A stretch of 41,904 nt of DNA from a virus, in IMG/VR virus record IMGVR_UViG_3300045988_046732; one strand, given 5' to 3'. How positions within the stretch are numbered: position 1 is the first letter of the stretch; every line of letters starts with the position of its first letter. Below the pieces are notes generated by a model. The model saw nothing but the letters and a program-made list of their open reading frames with translations. It made no database searches and was not told the DNA's origin. A program made the translations under genes and the position numbers. Of this stretch, positions 3,275 through 34,408 are shown piece by piece.

Positions 3275-3351
3275 GCAGACGTAGCTCAGATGGCAAGAGC
3301 GTTTCGCAAATAATGAAAATGTCGCGGGTTCGAGTCCCGCTGTCTGCGCCA
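3275..3351 (+). tRNA. Phage-encoded tRNA with encoded CCA; nominal anticodon AAT (Ile?) in a non-canonical loop CAAATAA (A at position 33)
   Basis: Hand-folded cloverleaf. Acceptor GCAGACG/TGTCTGC, D arm GCTC-AGATGGCAA-GAGC, anticodon stem TTTCG/TGAAA, variable ATGTC, T arm GCGGG-TTCGAGT-CCCGC, discriminator G, then CCA. Confidence 0.75.
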
Positions 3352-5499: not shown

Positions 5500-6772
5500 C
5501 CCGAAACAGAAGAAGATCCTTTCTTTCCCTTATTCCAAGTATGACGCGCTGATTTGCGACGGTGCTGTGCGTTCCGGTAAGACCTCAATCATGATGTGGG
5601 CGTTCGTCCGCTGGGCGATGGAGAATTTTAGCGGCCAGCGTTTCGGCGTGTGTGGCCGCACGGTTGACAGCTGCACCAAGAACATTATTGTGCCGTTCAC
5701 GGCGATGAGCCTTGCGAAGGAACGTTATATCATCCGCTGGCGGCGCGGTGATAAGGTGATGGAAGTACGGCGCGGAGCCGTGACGAATTACTTTGAAGTG
5801 TTCGGCGGCAAGGACGAGGCAAGCTATACACTGATCCAAGGCCGCACCCTGGCCGGCGTGCTGCTGGATGAGGTAGTGCTGATGCCGCGCTCGTTCGTGG
5901 AACAGGCGCTTGCACGTTGCTCTGTAGATGGTGCAAAGCTGTGGTTCTCTTGCAACCCTGGAAGCCCGCACCACTGGTTCTACCAGGAGTGGATTAAGCG
6001 GCATCGTGAGCGGAATACGCTGTATCTCCATTTCGAGATGACTGACAACCCCGGCCTGAGCGAAAGAACGCTTGAGCGCTACGCGAATATGTATGCTGGT
6101 ATCTTTTATGACCGCTATGTTCGCGGACTGTGGGTGGCAGCGGAAGGTGTCGTATACAAGGATTTCGCCAACAACACCGAGAAATACTTGATTGGGGATC
6201 CCTTGGAGTGGGCCGAGCAGAACGGGACCAGGTTCTCGATCATTTCTATTGGCGTTGACTTCGGCGGAACAAAATCCGCGACGAAGTTTCAGGCAACCGG
6301 AATCACGAAGGACTATCGTGTGGTCGCACTGGAAGAGGAATACATTAAGAACGAAGAGATTGACCCTGACGCGCTGAACCGGCGCTTTGCTACGTTTGCC
6401 CAGATGGTGACGGCAAAGTATGGATACAGCCAGACACGGGCAGACAGCGCGGAAACAGTTCTGATCCGTGGGTTAGATCATACCGCGCAAAAAATGCACC
6501 TTGGCACGCAGGTTAAGAACGCGCTGAAAATGCAAATCACAGATAGAATCCGGTTGGCGGTGCTGCTCATGAAGCAGGGCCGGTTCAAGGTTTCGCGGAG
6601 CTGCCCTCACCTGATCGATGCGCTGCAAACCGCAATTTATGATCCTGATAAGTTTGAGGACGAGCGCCTTGACGATGGAACGTCCGACATTGACAGCCTT
6701 GACGCCTTTGAGTACAGCATTGAGCCTTATTACAAAGACCTGGAACGTGCCGGTCACATGATGGGACGGTGA
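5492..6772 (+). CDS. terL: Terminase large subunit
   Basis: Walker A CDGAVRSGKTS, Walker B-like GVLLDEV, and a C-terminal nuclease region. ATG at 5492 overlaps the terS stop (track start 5465 is possible). Confidence 0.9.
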   Translation: MISPKQKKILSFPYSKYDALICDGAVRSGKTSIMMWAFVRWAMENFSGQRFGVCGRTVDSCTKNIIVPFTAMSLAKERYIIRWRRGDKVMEVRRGAVTNYFEVFGGKDEASYTLIQGRTLAGVLLDEVVLMPRSFVEQALARCSVDGAKLWFSCNPGSPHHWFYQEWIKRHRERNTLYLHFEMTDNPGLSERTLERYANMYAGIFYDRYVRGLWVAAEGVVYKDFANNTEKYLIGDPLEWAEQNGTRFSIISIGVDFGGTKSATKFQATGITKDYRVVALEEEYIKNEEIDPDALNRRFATFAQMVTAKYGYSQTRADSAETVLIRGLDHTAQKMHLGTQVKNALKMQITDRIRLAVLLMKQGRFKVSRSCPHLIDALQTAIYDPDKFEDERLDDGTSDIDSLDAFEYSIEPYYKDLERAGHMMGR

Positions 6773-10502: not shown

Positions 10503-11096
10503 ATGGCACTTACACGCAAACTTTTAAAGGGCATGGGTCTCACCGACGAACAGGTGGATACCATCATTGAGGCGCATACCGACACCGTGGACGGCCTGAA
10601 GGCTGATATCAGCCGTTACAAGACGGATGCGGAAAAGCTGCCCGGCGTCCAGAAGCAGTTGGACGATCTAAAGGCGGTGGGTGACGGCGGCTATCAGGAT
10701 AAGTACGAGAAGGAGCACAAAGCCTTTGAGGACTTTAAAGCTGGCGTCACGGCAAAGGAAAGCAAGGCGGCAAAGGAAAAGGCCGTTCGTGCTTACTTTG
10801 AAAGCAAAAACATCACCGGCGCAAATCTCGACCTTGCCATGCGTGGCTGCGGCGAGGAAATGGCAGCGTTGGAGCTGGACGGCGAGAAAATCAAGGACAC
10901 CAAAAGCCTTGACGCCCTCGTAGACGGCACCTACAAGGGGCTTGTTTCCAAGCCTGCTATTCGGGTTGATATGGGTGGACGGCTCAATGAAGGCGGGAAA
11001 CCCATGACAAAGGACGAGATCATGCAAATCACAGACAGAGCGGAGCGGCGTGCTGCAATCGCTGCAAATATGGATTTGTTTAGAAAGGAAGAATGA
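10503..11096 (+). CDS. Head scaffolding protein
   Basis: 197-aa charged, helical, K/E/D/A-rich protein directly upstream of and overlapping the capsid gene. Confidence 0.75.
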   Translation: MALTRKLLKGMGLTDEQVDTIIEAHTDTVDGLKADISRYKTDAEKLPGVQKQLDDLKAVGDGGYQDKYEKEHKAFEDFKAGVTAKESKAAKEKAVRAYFESKNITGANLDLAMRGCGEEMAALELDGEKIKDTKSLDALVDGTYKGLVSKPAIRVDMGGRLNEGGKPMTKDEIMQITDRAERRAAIAANMDLFRKEE

Positions 11097-24225: not shown

Positions 24226-25728
24226 ATGCTCAAAATCGCCATTGATGCGGGCCACTACAAGAGGACGCCGGGTCGGCGGTGCTTAGCCGCCCTGGACCCC
24301 GCCCAGACGGGAGAGTGGGAGCTTAACCGCCGGGTGGCGGACAAGCTGGAGGCGCTGCTGGCGGGGTATGACTGCCAGGTCCTCCGGGTGGACGACAAGA
24401 CCGGGGACAGGCTGATCGACCTGGGAGACCGGGTGGCGGCGGCCAACGGCTGGCCCGCGGACGTATATCTGAGCATCCACCACAACGCAGGAATTCGCGG
24501 CGGCAGCGGGGGCGGCTGCGTGGTATACACGGCCCCCGCCTGTCAGGCCAAAAGTAAGGCCCTCCAGCGGGCCGTTTACGGGGCCGTGGTGAGCCGGACG
24601 GGGCTGGTGGGCAACCGGGCCACCCCCATGGCGGAGAGCGGCCTGTACGTGCTCCGGCGGACAAAAATGCCCGCTATTCTCATTGAGTGCGGCTTCATGG
24701 ACAGCTCCACAGACGTGCCGGTGATCCTGGGGCCGTACTTCGCGGCGCAGGTGGCCGAGGGGCTTCTGGCGGCGCTGGTGGAGGTATTTGAGCTGAGAGA
24801 GCGCAAGGAGGTGCGGGAGCGGATGAGCTATACCAAGAGGGGCGGGGCCCACATTGTGGAGGTGCCGGTCAAGGACTTTGGTGTCCGGCTGGTGGACAAG
24901 GCCAAAAAGACGGCGTACCGCGGCAACTACTGCAACGCCGGTTTTTTTGGCAACTACAACGAGGGCCGGGACAAGTTTACCCTCCCCGTGGGACACACGG
25001 TGGCGGCCATGGCGACGGACAACAAGTGGGTAAACCACTACTGCGCCCAGCGGGGCAAGGTGTCCGGCGGCAAGCTGGTCTATGCTGAGCCGGGACGGAC
25101 GGAGACCACCCTGTTTGTCCGGGGCAACCTGGCGGACATGGGGGAGCTGAGCGCACCCCCGGAGGGCTGCGCCTATGCCATTGCCGGCGTGCCCGTGCTG
25201 CGGCAGGGCAAGGCGGTGAGCTGGGCCGCCGCAAAGGCCCAGGGCTGGGAGGCGTCCTCTCTCTATGCCACATGGCACATCTTTGCCGGGTACGGACAGG
25301 ACCGGAGCAAGATCACGGTGGTAGCGCTGAGGACCACCACGGGCAACCTGATCTCCAGCGGCGAGGGGGCCAAAAAGCTGGCGGCCCTGGGGCTACGGGA
25401 GGCCATCAAGCTGGACGGGGGCGGCAGCACCATCCTCCGGGCGGGGGGCAAGACCCCCGTATGCACGGCGGGCAATCGGCGGATCTGCACAGTGCTGACC
25501 TTTGGGGGCAATCCGTACACCGCCCCCACCAAGGCGCTGGCCAAGGGCAACCGGGGCGAGGGCGTGCGGTGGCTCCAGTGGGAACTCAAAGACCGGGGCT
25601 TTCCCTGCGCCGTAGACGGCAGCTTTGGCCCGGGGACCAAGGAGGCCCTGATGGCCTATCAGGTGAGCGCGGGGCTGGTGCCGGACGGCAGCTGCGGCCC
25701 GGCGACGAGAAAGGCGCTGCAAGAATAA
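24226..25728 (+). CDS. Endolysin: N-acetylmuramoyl-L-alanine amidase (Amidase_3), central DUF2233/phosphodiester-glycosidase-like domain, C-terminal PG_binding_1
   Basis: IAIDAGH...YLSIHHNAG...AILIECGFMDS (amidase). NAGFFGNY...IKLDGGGST (central domain). GEGVRWLQWELKDRGF...VDGSFGPGTKEALMAYQ (PG-binding). Confidence 0.85.
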   Translation: MLKIAIDAGHYKRTPGRRCLAALDPAQTGEWELNRRVADKLEALLAGYDCQVLRVDDKTGDRLIDLGDRVAAANGWPADVYLSIHHNAGIRGGSGGGCVVYTAPACQAKSKALQRAVYGAVVSRTGLVGNRATPMAESGLYVLRRTKMPAILIECGFMDSSTDVPVILGPYFAAQVAEGLLAALVEVFELRERKEVRERMSYTKRGGAHIVEVPVKDFGVRLVDKAKKTAYRGNYCNAGFFGNYNEGRDKFTLPVGHTVAAMATDNKWVNHYCAQRGKVSGGKLVYAEPGRTETTLFVRGNLADMGELSAPPEGCAYAIAGVPVLRQGKAVSWAAAKAQGWEASSLYATWHIFAGYGQDRSKITVVALRTTTGNLISSGEGAKKLAALGLREAIKLDGGGSTILRAGGKTPVCTAGNRRICTVLTFGGNPYTAPTKALAKGNRGEGVRWLQWELKDRGFPCAVDGSFGPGTKEALMAYQVSAGLVPDGSCGPATRKALQE

Positions 25729-25760
25729 AAAGCGCATTTTAGCGCGGAAAGGAAAACGGC

Positions 25761-25781
25761 GGGATGTCTGCAACACTTCCC
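25761..25781 (+). repeat. Solitary hairpin with loop CTGCAAC (fifth member of the 33541-33669 family)
   Basis: Stem gggatgt/acttccc (6 of 7 pairs) around loop ctgcaac (25768-25774), about 40 nt upstream of ATG 25816. Confidence 0.6.
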
Positions 25782-25815
25782 CGCGCTTTAGCGTTCTGCA
25801 AGCCGCGGTGTCGGT

Positions 25816-32345: not shown

Positions 32346-33011
32346 TTAAATTATATCTATTCCGTATAATGCCGCTTGGGCCAATGTTTTTTGATAGGCT
32401 TTAGAATTAGAGTTTTTCATTCTGGAGTATCCAGATAATGATTTTGGGCACAACGCAGGAAGATATTCTTGCAATCGATAATATTCATGTCGGATAGAAC
32501 GCTTTCTAATTCGTTCTTCTTCCATTTTCTTAATTAAGCGCTTCCATTTAAAATATGCAAATACGTTTGGGAAATCTCTTATAGAGAGATGCGGGTATAT
32601 TCCAACTTTTTGAAAATAGGAATCAACTCGCGCTTCTTCTTCCCATGCTTGCTTATGTGCACCTAAATTGTGCAAATGCATTATGTCAGATATGTAAGCA
32701 TCGTACTTCCAAACCATATCTGATATAAACATTAAGCTATGTGCTTTTCTTACACATTCTACGGCAAGTGCAATATTTTTCTCTTTGTAGTATTTTGCGA
32801 AGCACTGACCGCGCAAGTAATATTCTACACGGCCTGTAGGGGAATCTCCGTTTACCTCTGTACATGGGACAGGAATATTTCTTATCCCATCAACGGTTGA
32901 AAAATCATAAAAGCTTCTCAATCTAACGACTTCTTGTTCTCTTATTTGAGAATAAGCGTCGTTTTTTTCTTCGAGCGTTTTAGATCCGTCATCAAAAATA
33001 TTGTAAGCCAT
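32346..33011 (-). CDS. Hypothetical 221-aa protein, first gene of the leftward lysogeny operon (no family recognised)
   Basis: Long AT-rich ORF. There is no obvious SD upstream of the ATG at 33011. Confidence 0.6.
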   Translation of the reverse strand: MAYNIFDDGSKTLEEKNDAYSQIREQEVVRLRSFYDFSTVDGIRNIPVPCTEVNGDSPTGRVEYYLRGQCFAKYYKEKNIALAVECVRKAHSLMFISDMVWKYDAYISDIMHLHNLGAHKQAWEEEARVDSYFQKVGIYPHLSIRDFPNVFAYFKWKRLIKKMEEERIRKRSIRHEYYRLQEYLPALCPKSLSGYSRMKNSNSKAYQKTLAQAALYGIDII

Positions 33012-33088
33012 ACTTTAATAATAACTGCCAAATACAACGACATGTGTTTGTCCATTCTGCTAAATCCTACATTTTGTTGTCAAAGGCG

Positions 33089-33117
33089 TTGACATCCACC
33101 GTTATGTAGGCTATAAT
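33089..33117 (+). promoter_or_regulatory. Consensus sigma-70 promoter, rightward (early lytic, PR-like)
   Basis: TTGACA (33089-94), a 17-nt spacer, then TATAAT (33112-17). Confidence 0.75.
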
Positions 33118-33217
33118 AATCTCGTGAGTTATCATTGAGGCAACAAAAAACCAGACCCCCAAAGAAAAAATACTTTTTGCGGGTTTCATAGACGATATTT
33201 TGTTGGCTGACACTTAC

Positions 33218-33246
33218 ATGATAGCGGCGGGTGTTTCGTTTGTCAA
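33218..33246 (-). promoter_or_regulatory. Sigma-70 promoter, leftward (lysogenic, PL/PRM-like), face-to-face with the rightward promoter
   Basis: Minus strand reads TTGACA, a 17-nt spacer, then TATCAT. Confidence 0.55.
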
Positions 33247-33279
33247 GTGAAAACTCACATTGAAAGGAGGACGCACAAA

Positions 33280-33483
33280 TTGACATTGAGAGAGCTAAGG
33301 GAGCTTTCCGGTCTGACACGCGCACAGGTAGCGAAAAAGCTGAATGTTGACTTGTCCTGCGTGACGCATTGGGAGCTGGGCGATTGGCGACCGGCGCGGA
33401 AGTACCACAAGAAGCTGGCAAGGATGTACGGCGTGAGTGAGAAGGAGCTTATCGAGGCGCTTGAGGAAACGATTAAACCTTAG
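33280..33483 (+). CDS. Cro-like XRE-family HTH protein
   Basis: TTG start 8 nt after GAAAGGAGG. Sequence MTLRELRELSGLTRAQVAKKLNVDLSCVTHWELGDWRP... (the track uses a GTG at 33247). Confidence 0.7.
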   Translation: MTLRELRELSGLTRAQVAKKLNVDLSCVTHWELGDWRPARKYHKKLARMYGVSEKELIEALEETIKP

Positions 33484-33540
33484 CGAAAGCCAAAGCAACA
33501 CGGGACTGATTTTTGGTTGGCTTCGGCGGGGGAATGGGCC

Positions 33541-33669
33541 TGGTGATCTGCAACACCAATTTCCCCGCTTCTGCAACAAGCGAAAATGCCCCGCCGTCTC
33601 TGCAACAGACGGTGGGGCGGTGGAAGCGAATGGCATAAGCGCAAATGGTACGCCGTCTGCAACGCGACG
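33541..33669 (+). repeat. Tandem array of four hairpins sharing the 7-nt loop CTGCAAC with non-identical stems
   Basis: Loops at 33548-54, 33571-77, 33600-06 and 33657-63. Stems: tggtg/cacca (register shifted), cgctt/aagcg, ccccgccgtct/agacggtgggg, cgccgt/gcgacg. Confidence 0.8.
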
Positions 33670-33774
33670 AACCGGCTAAATACCAAGCTGATGCTTCCAT
33701 AGGGCAATATAGCACATTCCCCCGCCGAAGTCAATTAAAAGTTAGTTAAGGTTGCATAAAGAATTGGAGGTGAA

Positions 33775-33972
33775 ATGATGAGTTTCCGAAGCGCTCGGTT
33801 GGCCGCTGGTCTTAGCGTCCAGCAGGTGACCGAGAAACTGAATATCTCCGACGCGGCAGTGTACATGTGGGAGACCGGCCAGCAGAATCCGCGCGTGAGT
33901 CGGCTGCCGGAGATCGCCGCATTGTACGGCTGTACGTTGGACGAGCTGTTGAGGTCCGATGATGAAGAATAA
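33775..33972 (+). CDS. XRE-family HTH protein (second early regulator)
   Basis: GGAGGTG SD. Sequence LSVQQVTEKLNISDAAVYMWETGQQNPRVSRLPEIAALYGCTLDELL. Confidence 0.7.
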   Translation: MMSFRSARLAAGLSVQQVTEKLNISDAAVYMWETGQQNPRVSRLPEIAALYGCTLDELLRSDDEE

Positions 33973-34079
33973 GAAAAATGCCCCGCTCGGTGTAGCAGAC
34001 CGAACAGGGCGAGGGACAAAATCTCAGCAAAAGATATTGTGTCCTGCGGCTATTATACCGCAGGGGAAAGGAAAATACA

Positions 34080-34229
34080 ATGGGGAAGAAGCTTGAATAT
34101 AAAATTATTTGGTTGGAAGAGCCTGACCCCGTGAAGATTAAGACGACTCTGTGCCAGCTCTACGCCCGCCAAAACGGCCTGGAGTTTGTCGGCCTTGAGA
34201 AGGTCGAGACGGAATCGAAAGGTGCGTGA
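34080..34229 (+). CDS. Small hypothetical protein (49 aa; absent from the ORF track)
   Basis: Hand translation: MGKKLEYKIIWLEEPDPVKIKTTLCQLYARQNGLEFVGLEKVETESKGA. Confidence 0.4.
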   Translation: MGKKLEYKIIWLEEPDPVKIKTTLCQLYARQNGLEFVGLEKVETESKGA

Positions 34230-34408
34230 TTATGATGCGGGATCTGGTGGTGGCAGCCGCAGCCGTATGCGCGGTGAGCGGGTTGGTGCTGGCGGCGATG
34301 CCGGCCCTTGACAACAAGACGCAGCGCTGGATCGACGGCTTCTGCGCGGGCTGCCTGACGGCGTCCGTGGTGTGGGTGCTGGCGGCGGCGGTGCTGACGT
34401 TTGTGTGA
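34226..34408 (+). CDS. Small membrane protein
   Basis: 60 aa with two hydrophobic segments. Confidence 0.45.
   Translation: MIMMRDLVVAAAAVCAVSGLVLAAMPALDNKTQRWIDGFCAGCLTASVVWVLAAAVLTFV

Follow-up and report, generated by a model that had tools for sequence, protein, structure and literature searches.

A candidate small RNA with repeated apical loops in an exchangeable cassette of temperate phages

The IMG/VR virus record IMGVR_UViG_3300045988_046732—41,904 nucleotides of viral DNA, analyzed here at full length and referred to as ‘the window’—harbors, at positions 33,541 to 33,669, four hairpins that present the same short sequence at their apices. The reading we favor, and consider rather probable, is that these hairpins are part of a minus-strand small regulatory RNA gene, carried in a swappable promoter-terminator cassette, with the loops serving as recognition elements. 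As to the identity of the element we are fairly confident: judged by its sequence, it would be a minus-strand promoter-RNA-terminator gene that represents the long form of a family absent from Rfam and occupies an exchangeable cassette antisense to the early operon. We hold with moderate to low confidence that it exerts antisense or trans regulation through its identical recognition loops. While anatomy, strand, homologues and payload exchange can be read from the DNA, we infer the expression of the RNA and the role of its loops.

Anatomy of the hairpin array and its short homologue

On the plus strand, the loop motif TCTGCAAC occurs at positions 33547, 33570, 33599 and 33656, with a remote copy at 25767, amounting to five occurrences in the whole window as compared to 1.54 expected on both strands. 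The four clustered copies, one per hairpin apex, span 117 nt (33547-33663), in agreement with a first-pass annotation of this DNA that had counted four copies within about 120 nt, and follow each other at irregular spacings of 23, 29 and 57 bp. Three of the four share the 9-mer TCTGCAACA, the remaining copy reading TCTGCAACG. The array is hosted by a 291-nt gap (33484-33774) flanked by a Cro-like helix-turn-helix (HTH) gene and a second HTH gene. All four hairpins were recovered as that annotation had drawn them, with the stem of hairpin C extending to 13 pairs. Together with the predicted RNA, they are:

33541-33558, minus strand: hairpin A, stem tggtg/cacca with the register shifted by one, apex UGUUGCAGA on the minus strand; downstream of hairpin C in RNA sense
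33566-33582, minus strand: hairpin B, stem cgctt/aagcg, 7-nt loop; downstream of hairpin C in RNA sense
33587-33619, minus strand: hairpin C, 13 pairs with one G:U (on the plus strand), G+C-rich, loop GUUGCAG followed by AUUUUCGCUU; probable intrinsic terminator
33651-33669, minus strand: hairpin D, 5 of 6 pairs; caps the long 5' stem-loop domain of the small RNA
33583-33699, minus strand: predicted small RNA of about 115 nt, starting about 7 nt past the -10 box and ending at the U-run after hairpin C, both ends being predictions

Read-through beyond the predicted end at hairpin C would append hairpin B and then hairpin A to this RNA. Compared with shuffled sequences, the fold of the gap gave z = -7.4 on the plus strand and z = -5.5 on the minus strand. 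On the latter, the motif was unpaired with a probability (P) of 0.92 in hairpin B and of 0.82 in hairpin A, which occurs only in the long (218-nt) form of the unit. Direct reading showed the 3' side of hairpin B to resemble that of hairpin C. Tandem Repeats Finder called no tandem repeat in the array, so that a simple tandem duplication, which the first-pass annotation had likewise dismissed, is not indicated. A coding reading of the gap was rejected: the minus-strand open reading frames (ORFs) of 80-84 aa that span it lack a ribosome-binding site, and the copies of the motif are spread over three reading frames. Scanning IMG/VR for three spaced copies of TCTGCAAC returned only coding tandem repeats of unrelated viruses, and a literature word search for CUGCAAC/GUUGCAG returned nothing relevant. 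In a census of strong hairpins, the loop of the motif was the commonest among loops of at least 5 nt, yet accounted for only about 14 of 1604 distinct hairpins; terminators other than the motif-capped ones used other loops.

On the minus strand, the 13-pair stem of hairpin C is followed by AUUUUCGCUU (AUUUU), which the terminator scan did not call in the window. It did call the corresponding terminator, as well as the promoter, in a shorter homologue, a 169-nt unit recovered from about 40 contigs of a metagenome scan and from about 60 of IMG/VR, many of them labeled human gut. This short form comprises the shared frame of the cassette, a promoter (TTGACT-17-TATGGT), an RNA of about 120 nt and a terminator on the minus strand with 16 pairs, the loop GUUGCAG and a downstream TTTTATCTCT (U6). 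In its minus-strand fold (-57.4 kcal/mol, z = -6.55), a long 5' stem-loop carries the hairpin D homologue at its tip, and the terminator, homologous to hairpin C, comes after it. The long form (218 nt), found in the window and in the related loci L120/L126, L192, L197, L228, L235 and L238, corresponds to the short-form RNA plus hairpins B and A, which lie between the terminator and the left cassette arm. The payload of the window is a rare long form of a common predicted small RNA.

Overall identity between the two forms is 52%, falling to 44% once the motifs are set aside. The longest runs they share are TGTTGCAGAGAC (12 nt) as well as ACCGCCCC and GTTGCAGA (8 nt each); two of these three are the loop motifs, with GTTGCAGA and TGTTGCAGAGAC being exact in both forms. 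The stem of hairpin D is unrelated between the forms, its loop motif identical, and the stem of hairpin C differs at several pairs with pairing retained. Exact loops in forms that are 44% identical elsewhere imply that the pattern of conserved apex and variable stem is real across lineages, lending substance to the earlier view of a selected single-strand structure. The homologous RNA keeps the loops exactly in more than 100 gut-phage contigs. MAFFT misplaced the 5' stem and the 5' arm of hairpin D by one to two columns; the hairpins were compared by per-hairpin folds and direct reading, as covariation counts drawn from only two divergent lineages would mislead.

The small RNA had no match in Rfam 15, in keeping with the impression of an undescribed element given by the first-pass annotation. 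A search of the genome collection with the conserved leader returned no match, and one with the pattern of the 3' arm returned two chance matches (L184 and L185). Among annotated phage records, only unannotated human-faecal ‘Bacteriophage sp.’ entries matched.

Genomic setting and exchange of payloads

The array forms the interior of a 242-nt unit bounded by a 35-nt inverted repeat with arms that are 83% complementary. Both this repeat and the promoter on the opposite strand had been overlooked in the first-pass annotation. The features of the locus are:

33089-33117, plus strand: early rightward promoter TTGACA-17-TATAAT, 12/12 matches
33280-33483, plus strand: Cro-like HTH gene (HTH_31 and HTH_3), upstream of the cassette
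33505-33539, either strand: left inverted-repeat arm, pairing with 33712-33746 in the plus-strand fold; beyond the end of the small RNA on the minus strand
33712-33746, either strand: right inverted-repeat arm, overlapping the -35 box and spacer of the minus-strand promoter
33734 to 33706, minus strand: sigma-70-type promoter TTGACT-17-TATATT, 10/12 matches, with TG before the -10 box
33775-33972, plus strand: second HTH gene, downstream of the cassette; the first early gene in relatives

The promoter and terminator scan found neither a promoter nor a terminator on the plus strand between cro and 33775, leaving 33089-33117 as the sole rightward promoter found 5' of the second HTH gene. Given this single early promoter and the lack of a plus-strand terminator before 33775, the early transcript very probably reads through the cassette. 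The predicted minus-strand promoter very probably fires against this read-through transcript, and both strands of the array are probably transcribed. The sense read-through transcript should also fold, with the arms closing off the cassette, perhaps for processing, insulation or exchange. As for a cis-encoded antisense small RNA, the candidate has a promoter and a terminator of its own (the terminator call stemming from the short form) opposite a region presumed to be transcribed in sense.

This is a temperate phage: a serine integrase and repressor-like genes lie on the minus strand, and the plus strand carries, in order, cro, Gam, an annealing protein, an HNH-type nuclease and a replication initiator. 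Between the repressor-side genes and cro lie divergent near-consensus promoters (33218-33246 on the minus strand, 33089-33117 on the plus strand), with repeated GTGAGTT / AACTCAC sequences there that look like operators and are replaced by CTAAGTT / AACTTAG in relatives of other immunity types.

Relatives share a cassette frame made up of promoter, inverted repeat and terminator end. Read as its reverse complement (TATAGCANAT...GCCGNAGTCAA), the promoter region was found in 59 IMG/VR contigs, and the units within shared arms fall into discrete sizes. A search pattern of TTGACT, a fixed 17-nt gap and TAnnnT recovered 165 copies, which thus share the promoter by definition; the -10 hexamer was TATGGT, TATACT, TATATT, TATAGT or TATAAT in 165/165. 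What the frame encloses on the minus strand differs between relatives: the FuFi-1 RNA, a gene for a 43-aa basic protein, other contents, or the present RNA in its short or long form. A single left flank carries units of 169, 196, 265, 338 and 423 nt, and one 169-nt unit is found in three flank contexts; payload and flanks assort independently.

FuFi-1 was reported as a strongly conserved motif that has a 3' terminator and whose function is unknown (Weinberg et al. 2017, PMC5737381). As a payload in relatives it scored 108-121 bits against the FuFi-1 model (RF02986; gathering score 59.6) on the strand that Rfam models. Its sites, antisense to the early operon, include L121 2584-2808 (minus strand of the locus), L127 508-664 and L144 764-922, and 5' of it lie a ribosome-binding site and an ORF of 16-22 codons, MTNLL(I/T)LPVP.... 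In the window, no FuFi-1 match was obtained within 32800-34400 even at E ≤ 10, and none at the gathering score over the full length. The 43-aa, very basic protein, MP(R/K)NSVRTSKRVASKASK...LAASALSNRRSK, has a ribosome-binding site and matches phrog_5079 (E = 1e-11), a family of unknown function; it is encoded at L122 about 2690-2965 and L160 about 6250-6516 (minus strand of the units), and L192 holds a nearly leaderless 32-aa version.

The site may also be empty, as it is in the window at 33262|33263, just upstream of the cro ribosome-binding site; at the equivalent position the near-twin L126 holds a 338-nt unit whose 20-nt terminal inverted repeats are perfect and which may contain a sense-strand ORF (MLRKVCRGEVTNLEQL...). 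L119 (MT835513, human faeces) has no unit upstream of its HTH gene. The terminal inverted repeats, 35-nt arms in the window and the perfect 20-nt pair in L126, are those expected of a transposon or an element resembling miniature inverted-repeat transposable elements. We rejected this reading for want of a consistent target-site duplication: in most contexts the flanks share no direct repeat, and the apparent duplication in one flank context is an operator-like repeat. Since target-site duplications are not general, recombination at the conserved frame is more likely than transposition. In behavior the cassette resembles PeSL-like exchange, with a constant promoter/stem-loop frame, unrelated payloads, and presence or absence among close relatives.

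Functional strand, complementary loops and proposed mechanism

Several observations bear on which strand is functional. Read on the minus strand, the loops are GUUGCAG, and every copy of the motif is predicted to be unpaired (P 0.82-0.98). Copy D, by contrast, is partly paired on the plus strand, with P unpaired of 0.44 in the short form and 0.66 in the window. Whole-fold energies for minus versus plus strand are -57.4 versus -51.4 in the short form and -68.2 versus -62.8 in the long form. Individually, hairpins D, B and A of the long form and C and D of the short form favor the minus strand, the exception being hairpin C of the window. The stem of the short-form hairpin D requires three G:U pairs available on the minus strand only, and the compensatory path of the terminator, from C-G via U.G to U-A, likewise works on the minus strand only. 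The promoter and the U-tract both lie on this strand, and FuFi-1 and the small ORF take the same orientation within the frame. Promoter, U-tract, fold energies and loop exposure thus favor the minus-strand loop GUUGCAG over the tRNA-Cys(GCA) anticodon-arm shape that the first-pass annotation had seen in the plus strand.

Hairpins elsewhere in these phages carry CUGCAAC in RNA sense, that is, the complement of the small RNA loops. Between two minus-strand genes of the lysogeny module, a G+C-rich hairpin occurs in more than 15 stem variants across about 60 loci, always with UCUGCAACA. Two further hairpins lie in the window:

34010 to 33980, minus strand: terminator of a second small unit, loop CUGCUAC, U5; most relatives read CUGCAAC
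25757-25790, plus strand: hairpin of the distant fifth copy, loop CUGCAAC, weak, just after the endolysin gene (24226-25728)

The second small minus-strand unit (33975-34078) directly follows the second HTH gene and is strongly structured (z = -6.9); across these phages its terminator is located downstream of either cro or the second HTH gene. In L186 a promoter was called for it as well (2087 to 2059), and Rfam returned only a weak sX13-like match (20.6 bits, E = 0.33). The local fold at 25757-25790 is not significant in the window (z = -0.3), and in the L177 orthologue the same loop tops a perfect stem of 7 pairs whose sequence differs. Before a holin-like gene, four relatives (L183, L253, L274 and L287) possess a hairpin that sequesters the ribosome-binding site. 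In L183, about 10627-10649 on the minus strand of the locus, the sequence ccttaaaa-CTGCAAC-ttttaagg places its 3' arm within the ribosome-binding site of a small membrane protein gene; such genes are followed by holin-like and lysin-like genes, and the stems covary between loci. The orientation of the motif is nearly fixed per site over about 60 loci, with one flip at one site and none at another. In the sole flip seen, L121 4708-4741 versus L119 4146-4190, terminator and flanks are the same and the inner stem and loop are inverted. As motif hairpins cap other transcription units, a factor that reads the CUGCAAC loop is possible; such a factor, acting on phage mRNAs, might be the residue of truth in the tRNA-like idea.

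How might the candidate RNA act? Starting at the promoter 33734 to 33706, a prophage would produce an RNA of about 115 nt that folds into a long 5' stem-loop with hairpin D on top, hairpin C acting as intrinsic terminator. The gene would sit within the leader of the early (lytic) operon, antisense to it. The RNA would then be an antisense or trans-acting regulator in which the identical apical loops (5'-UGUUGCAGA-3') provide recognition, making first contact either with the mirror-image loops of the read-through early transcript or with hairpins elsewhere in the phage that bear the exact complement UCUGCAACA. Either contact would alter the stability or translation of the target RNA, for instance via RNase III. 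Building on loop complementarity, one may go further and conceive of a ‘loop code’, a tentative idea to which we give little credence, in which UGUUGCAGA loops kiss UCUGCAACA loops and a trans-acting RNA links several units. Its targets—just as speculative—would be the end of the lysogeny operon, the end of the second small RNA, the region after the lysis genes and, in some relatives, the ribosome-binding site of the holin-like gene.

A number of observations weigh against a minus-strand small RNA with recognition loops. Promoter, start and 3' end of the RNA are all predicted; hairpin C of the window is followed by only four U residues and drew no terminator call; and with just two divergent forms of the RNA, the covariation rests on two lineages. 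With respect to strand, the plus-strand G:U pair in hairpin C of the window becomes an A.C mismatch on the minus strand, and the variants of hairpin B in L228 and L235 pair only via plus-strand G:U. Three pairs of the inverted-repeat arms change on both sides between cassette types; the arms thus covary, although pairing between them is impossible in an RNA whose start lies past the -10 box, pointing to selection on the plus strand or at the DNA level too. Phages with a FuFi-1 or ORF payload also carry hairpins with CUGCAAC loops, indicating that those loops are independent of the small RNA. Finally, the neighboring site reads CUGCUAC in 22 of 37 sequence contexts with the small RNA, as opposed to 1 of 29 in the other phages. 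This excess in RNA carriers could reflect physical linkage or avoidance of self-targeting. Should the tentative ‘loop code’ apply, the RNA could also be a weapon against related superinfecting phages, as carriers often have a mismatched neighboring loop and other phages keep a perfect target.

Competing explanations and relation to known systems

Of the alternatives to a minus-strand small RNA, two seem to us unlikely to about the same degree. One is a sense-strand element in the early rightward transcript after cro, be it a protein site (for nut/boxB-like antitermination, processing or stability) or an RNase III site with a 33-pair closing stem that controls the downstream HTH gene. Transcription of the plus strand is needed to reach 33775, with no other promoter or plus-strand terminator found; the fold of the plus strand has a z-score of -7.4, and only plus-strand RNA can form the long closing stem; the G:U pairs in hairpin C and in the variants of hairpin B fit this strand, and the other phage hairpins show CUGCAAC in mRNA sense. 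Yet a sense-strand element leaves the conserved promoter and the U-tract without a role, and copy D of the short form is largely paired on the plus strand (P unpaired 0.44), its three G:U pairs being confined to the minus strand. As for the nut/boxB-like site suggested by the first-pass annotation, hairpin D is poorly presented on the sense strand in the common form; no boxA-like sequence (CGCTCTTTA, up to one mismatch) occurs in 33484-33774 and the cassette is missing from some close relatives, both of which argue against a nut site. The other alternative regards the hairpins as terminator copies without loop function: hairpin C would be an inverted copy of another phage terminator, with D, B and A as partial duplicates, all recent and with stems repaired by templated palindrome changes. 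The minus strand of hairpin C (CCCCACCGTCTGTTGCAGAGACGGCGGGG) is indeed similar to the hairpin found in the lysogeny module of relatives (CCCCGCCGTTTGTTGCAGAGGGCGGCGGGG), B and C are alike on their 3' sides, and orthologous sites show slight loop variation (CTGCTAC, CTACAAC, GTTGCGGA). Recent copying is difficult to reconcile with RNA forms that are 44% identical elsewhere and retain both loop motifs exactly, with a stem of hairpin D that is wholly different in the two forms, and with more than 15 stem variants of the lysogeny-module hairpin that all keep the 9-mer.

Somewhat less probable still is a motif that acts as DNA, in which TCTGCAACA/TGTTGCAGA would be read as a duplex or as an extruded hairpin—in replication, in recombination or module exchange, or in nucleoid organization—and terminator loops would tolerate it. 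Consistent with this, the motif occurs in both orientations relative to transcription, the inner part of one orthologous hairpin is flipped (L121 versus L119), the cassette arms covary though unable to pair in the small RNA, and four direct copies lie within 117 bp. Conversely, orientation per site is almost fixed over about 60 loci, the spacing of 23, 29 and 57 bp is irregular, and a duplex site has no need of flanking inverted repeats, whereas every copy here is flanked by a stem of its own that shows compensatory changes. With regard to the replication role proposed by the first-pass annotation, nothing pointed to a replication origin. That annotation's tRNA idea, in which the C-U-GCA-A-C loops of the plus strand imitate a tRNA-Cys anticodon arm and thereby decoy an anticodon nuclease or tRNA-modifying enzyme, we regard as highly improbable. 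The plus-strand loop does have 7 nt, a U at position 2 and an A at position 6, fitting the pyrimidine 32, U33 and purine 37 of an anticodon loop (the minus-strand loop has G at position 32), and the identical loop appears in RNA sense on several other phage transcripts. However, bacterial tRNA-Cys loops typically read UUGCAAA rather than CUGCAAC, and the gene signals lie on the opposite strand. The 5-bp stem of an anticodon arm is found in hairpin B alone: hairpin C has 13 pairs, D forms 5 of 6 and contains a mismatch, and the register of A is shifted, with homologues of 7 to 16 pairs; overall, stems range from 5 to 15 or 16 pairs, the longest being the intrinsic terminator. Neither a nuclease nor an inhibitor gene was linked to the motif. 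The only tRNA that ARAGORN and the Rfam tRNA model called in the window, with no match at the array, lies in the late region at 3275-3348 on the plus strand (54.8 bits with Rfam; ARAGORN call tRNA-Ile, anticodon AAT). Across 60 related loci, no tRNA-Cys was found.

The minus-strand small RNA is thus left as the explanation we prefer, and it would be of known kinds—the small RNAs of phage immunity regions and moron-like cassettes—with the family itself absent from Rfam. Temperate phages encode cis-antisense small RNAs in their immunity regions, examples being OOP of lambda, sar of P22 and c4 of P1. The present candidate likewise appears as a small RNA with its own promoter and intrinsic terminator, beside cro and against the early transcript; unlike them, it is a predicted RNA with two to four identical loops, an inverted-repeat cassette and an exchangeable payload, and no sequence relation to any of the three. 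Like nutR/boxB of lambda, the array lies immediately downstream of cro and has a hairpin whose loop is conserved, but it differs in the lack of a boxA-like sequence, in a functional strand that is apparently the opposite one, and in being dispensable in relatives. FuFi-1 (RF02986) is alike in its cassette slot, minus-strand promoter, arms, early-leader position and 3' intrinsic terminator, yet it is without the repeated identical apical loops of the window RNA, which for its part gives no match to the FuFi-1 model.

Recognition through shared loops has a parallel outside phages, several hairpins of RNAIII of Staphylococcus aureus sharing one loop motif. In its complexes with mRNAs, RNAIII makes a loop-loop contact, and the bound regions are cut by RNase III (PMC2837412). 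Similarly, the loops of the candidate small RNA are exactly complementary to loops of other phage hairpins, with which they would pair. In contrast to RNAIII, the candidate targets here are mostly terminator hairpins rather than ribosome-binding sites, and co-occurrence does not favor perfect complementarity. As for the cassette, the PeSL cassettes of T4-type phages are conserved promoter/stem-loop modules that serve as exchange points for insertions, deletions and replacements between close relatives (PMC2839356, PMC4122927). The constant frame and varying payloads described here are similar; the phages and sequences are different, and the present frame, located in a lysis-lysogeny switch, has inverted-repeat arms and holds both RNA genes and a small ORF.

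A tRNA-decoy reading is thereby replaced by a testable candidate small RNA family in the lysis-lysogeny switch of temperate phages that are common in human-gut metagenomes. Because the loops recur and have complements elsewhere in the genome, simple mutations could be used to probe RNA-RNA or RNA-protein recognition. The most useful by-product is the genetic context gained for FuFi-1: this orphan structured RNA appears as one interchangeable payload, behind the same promoter and antisense to the early operon, and its function may become approachable by comparing natural alleles that carry the present RNA, FuFi-1, a small protein or an empty site.

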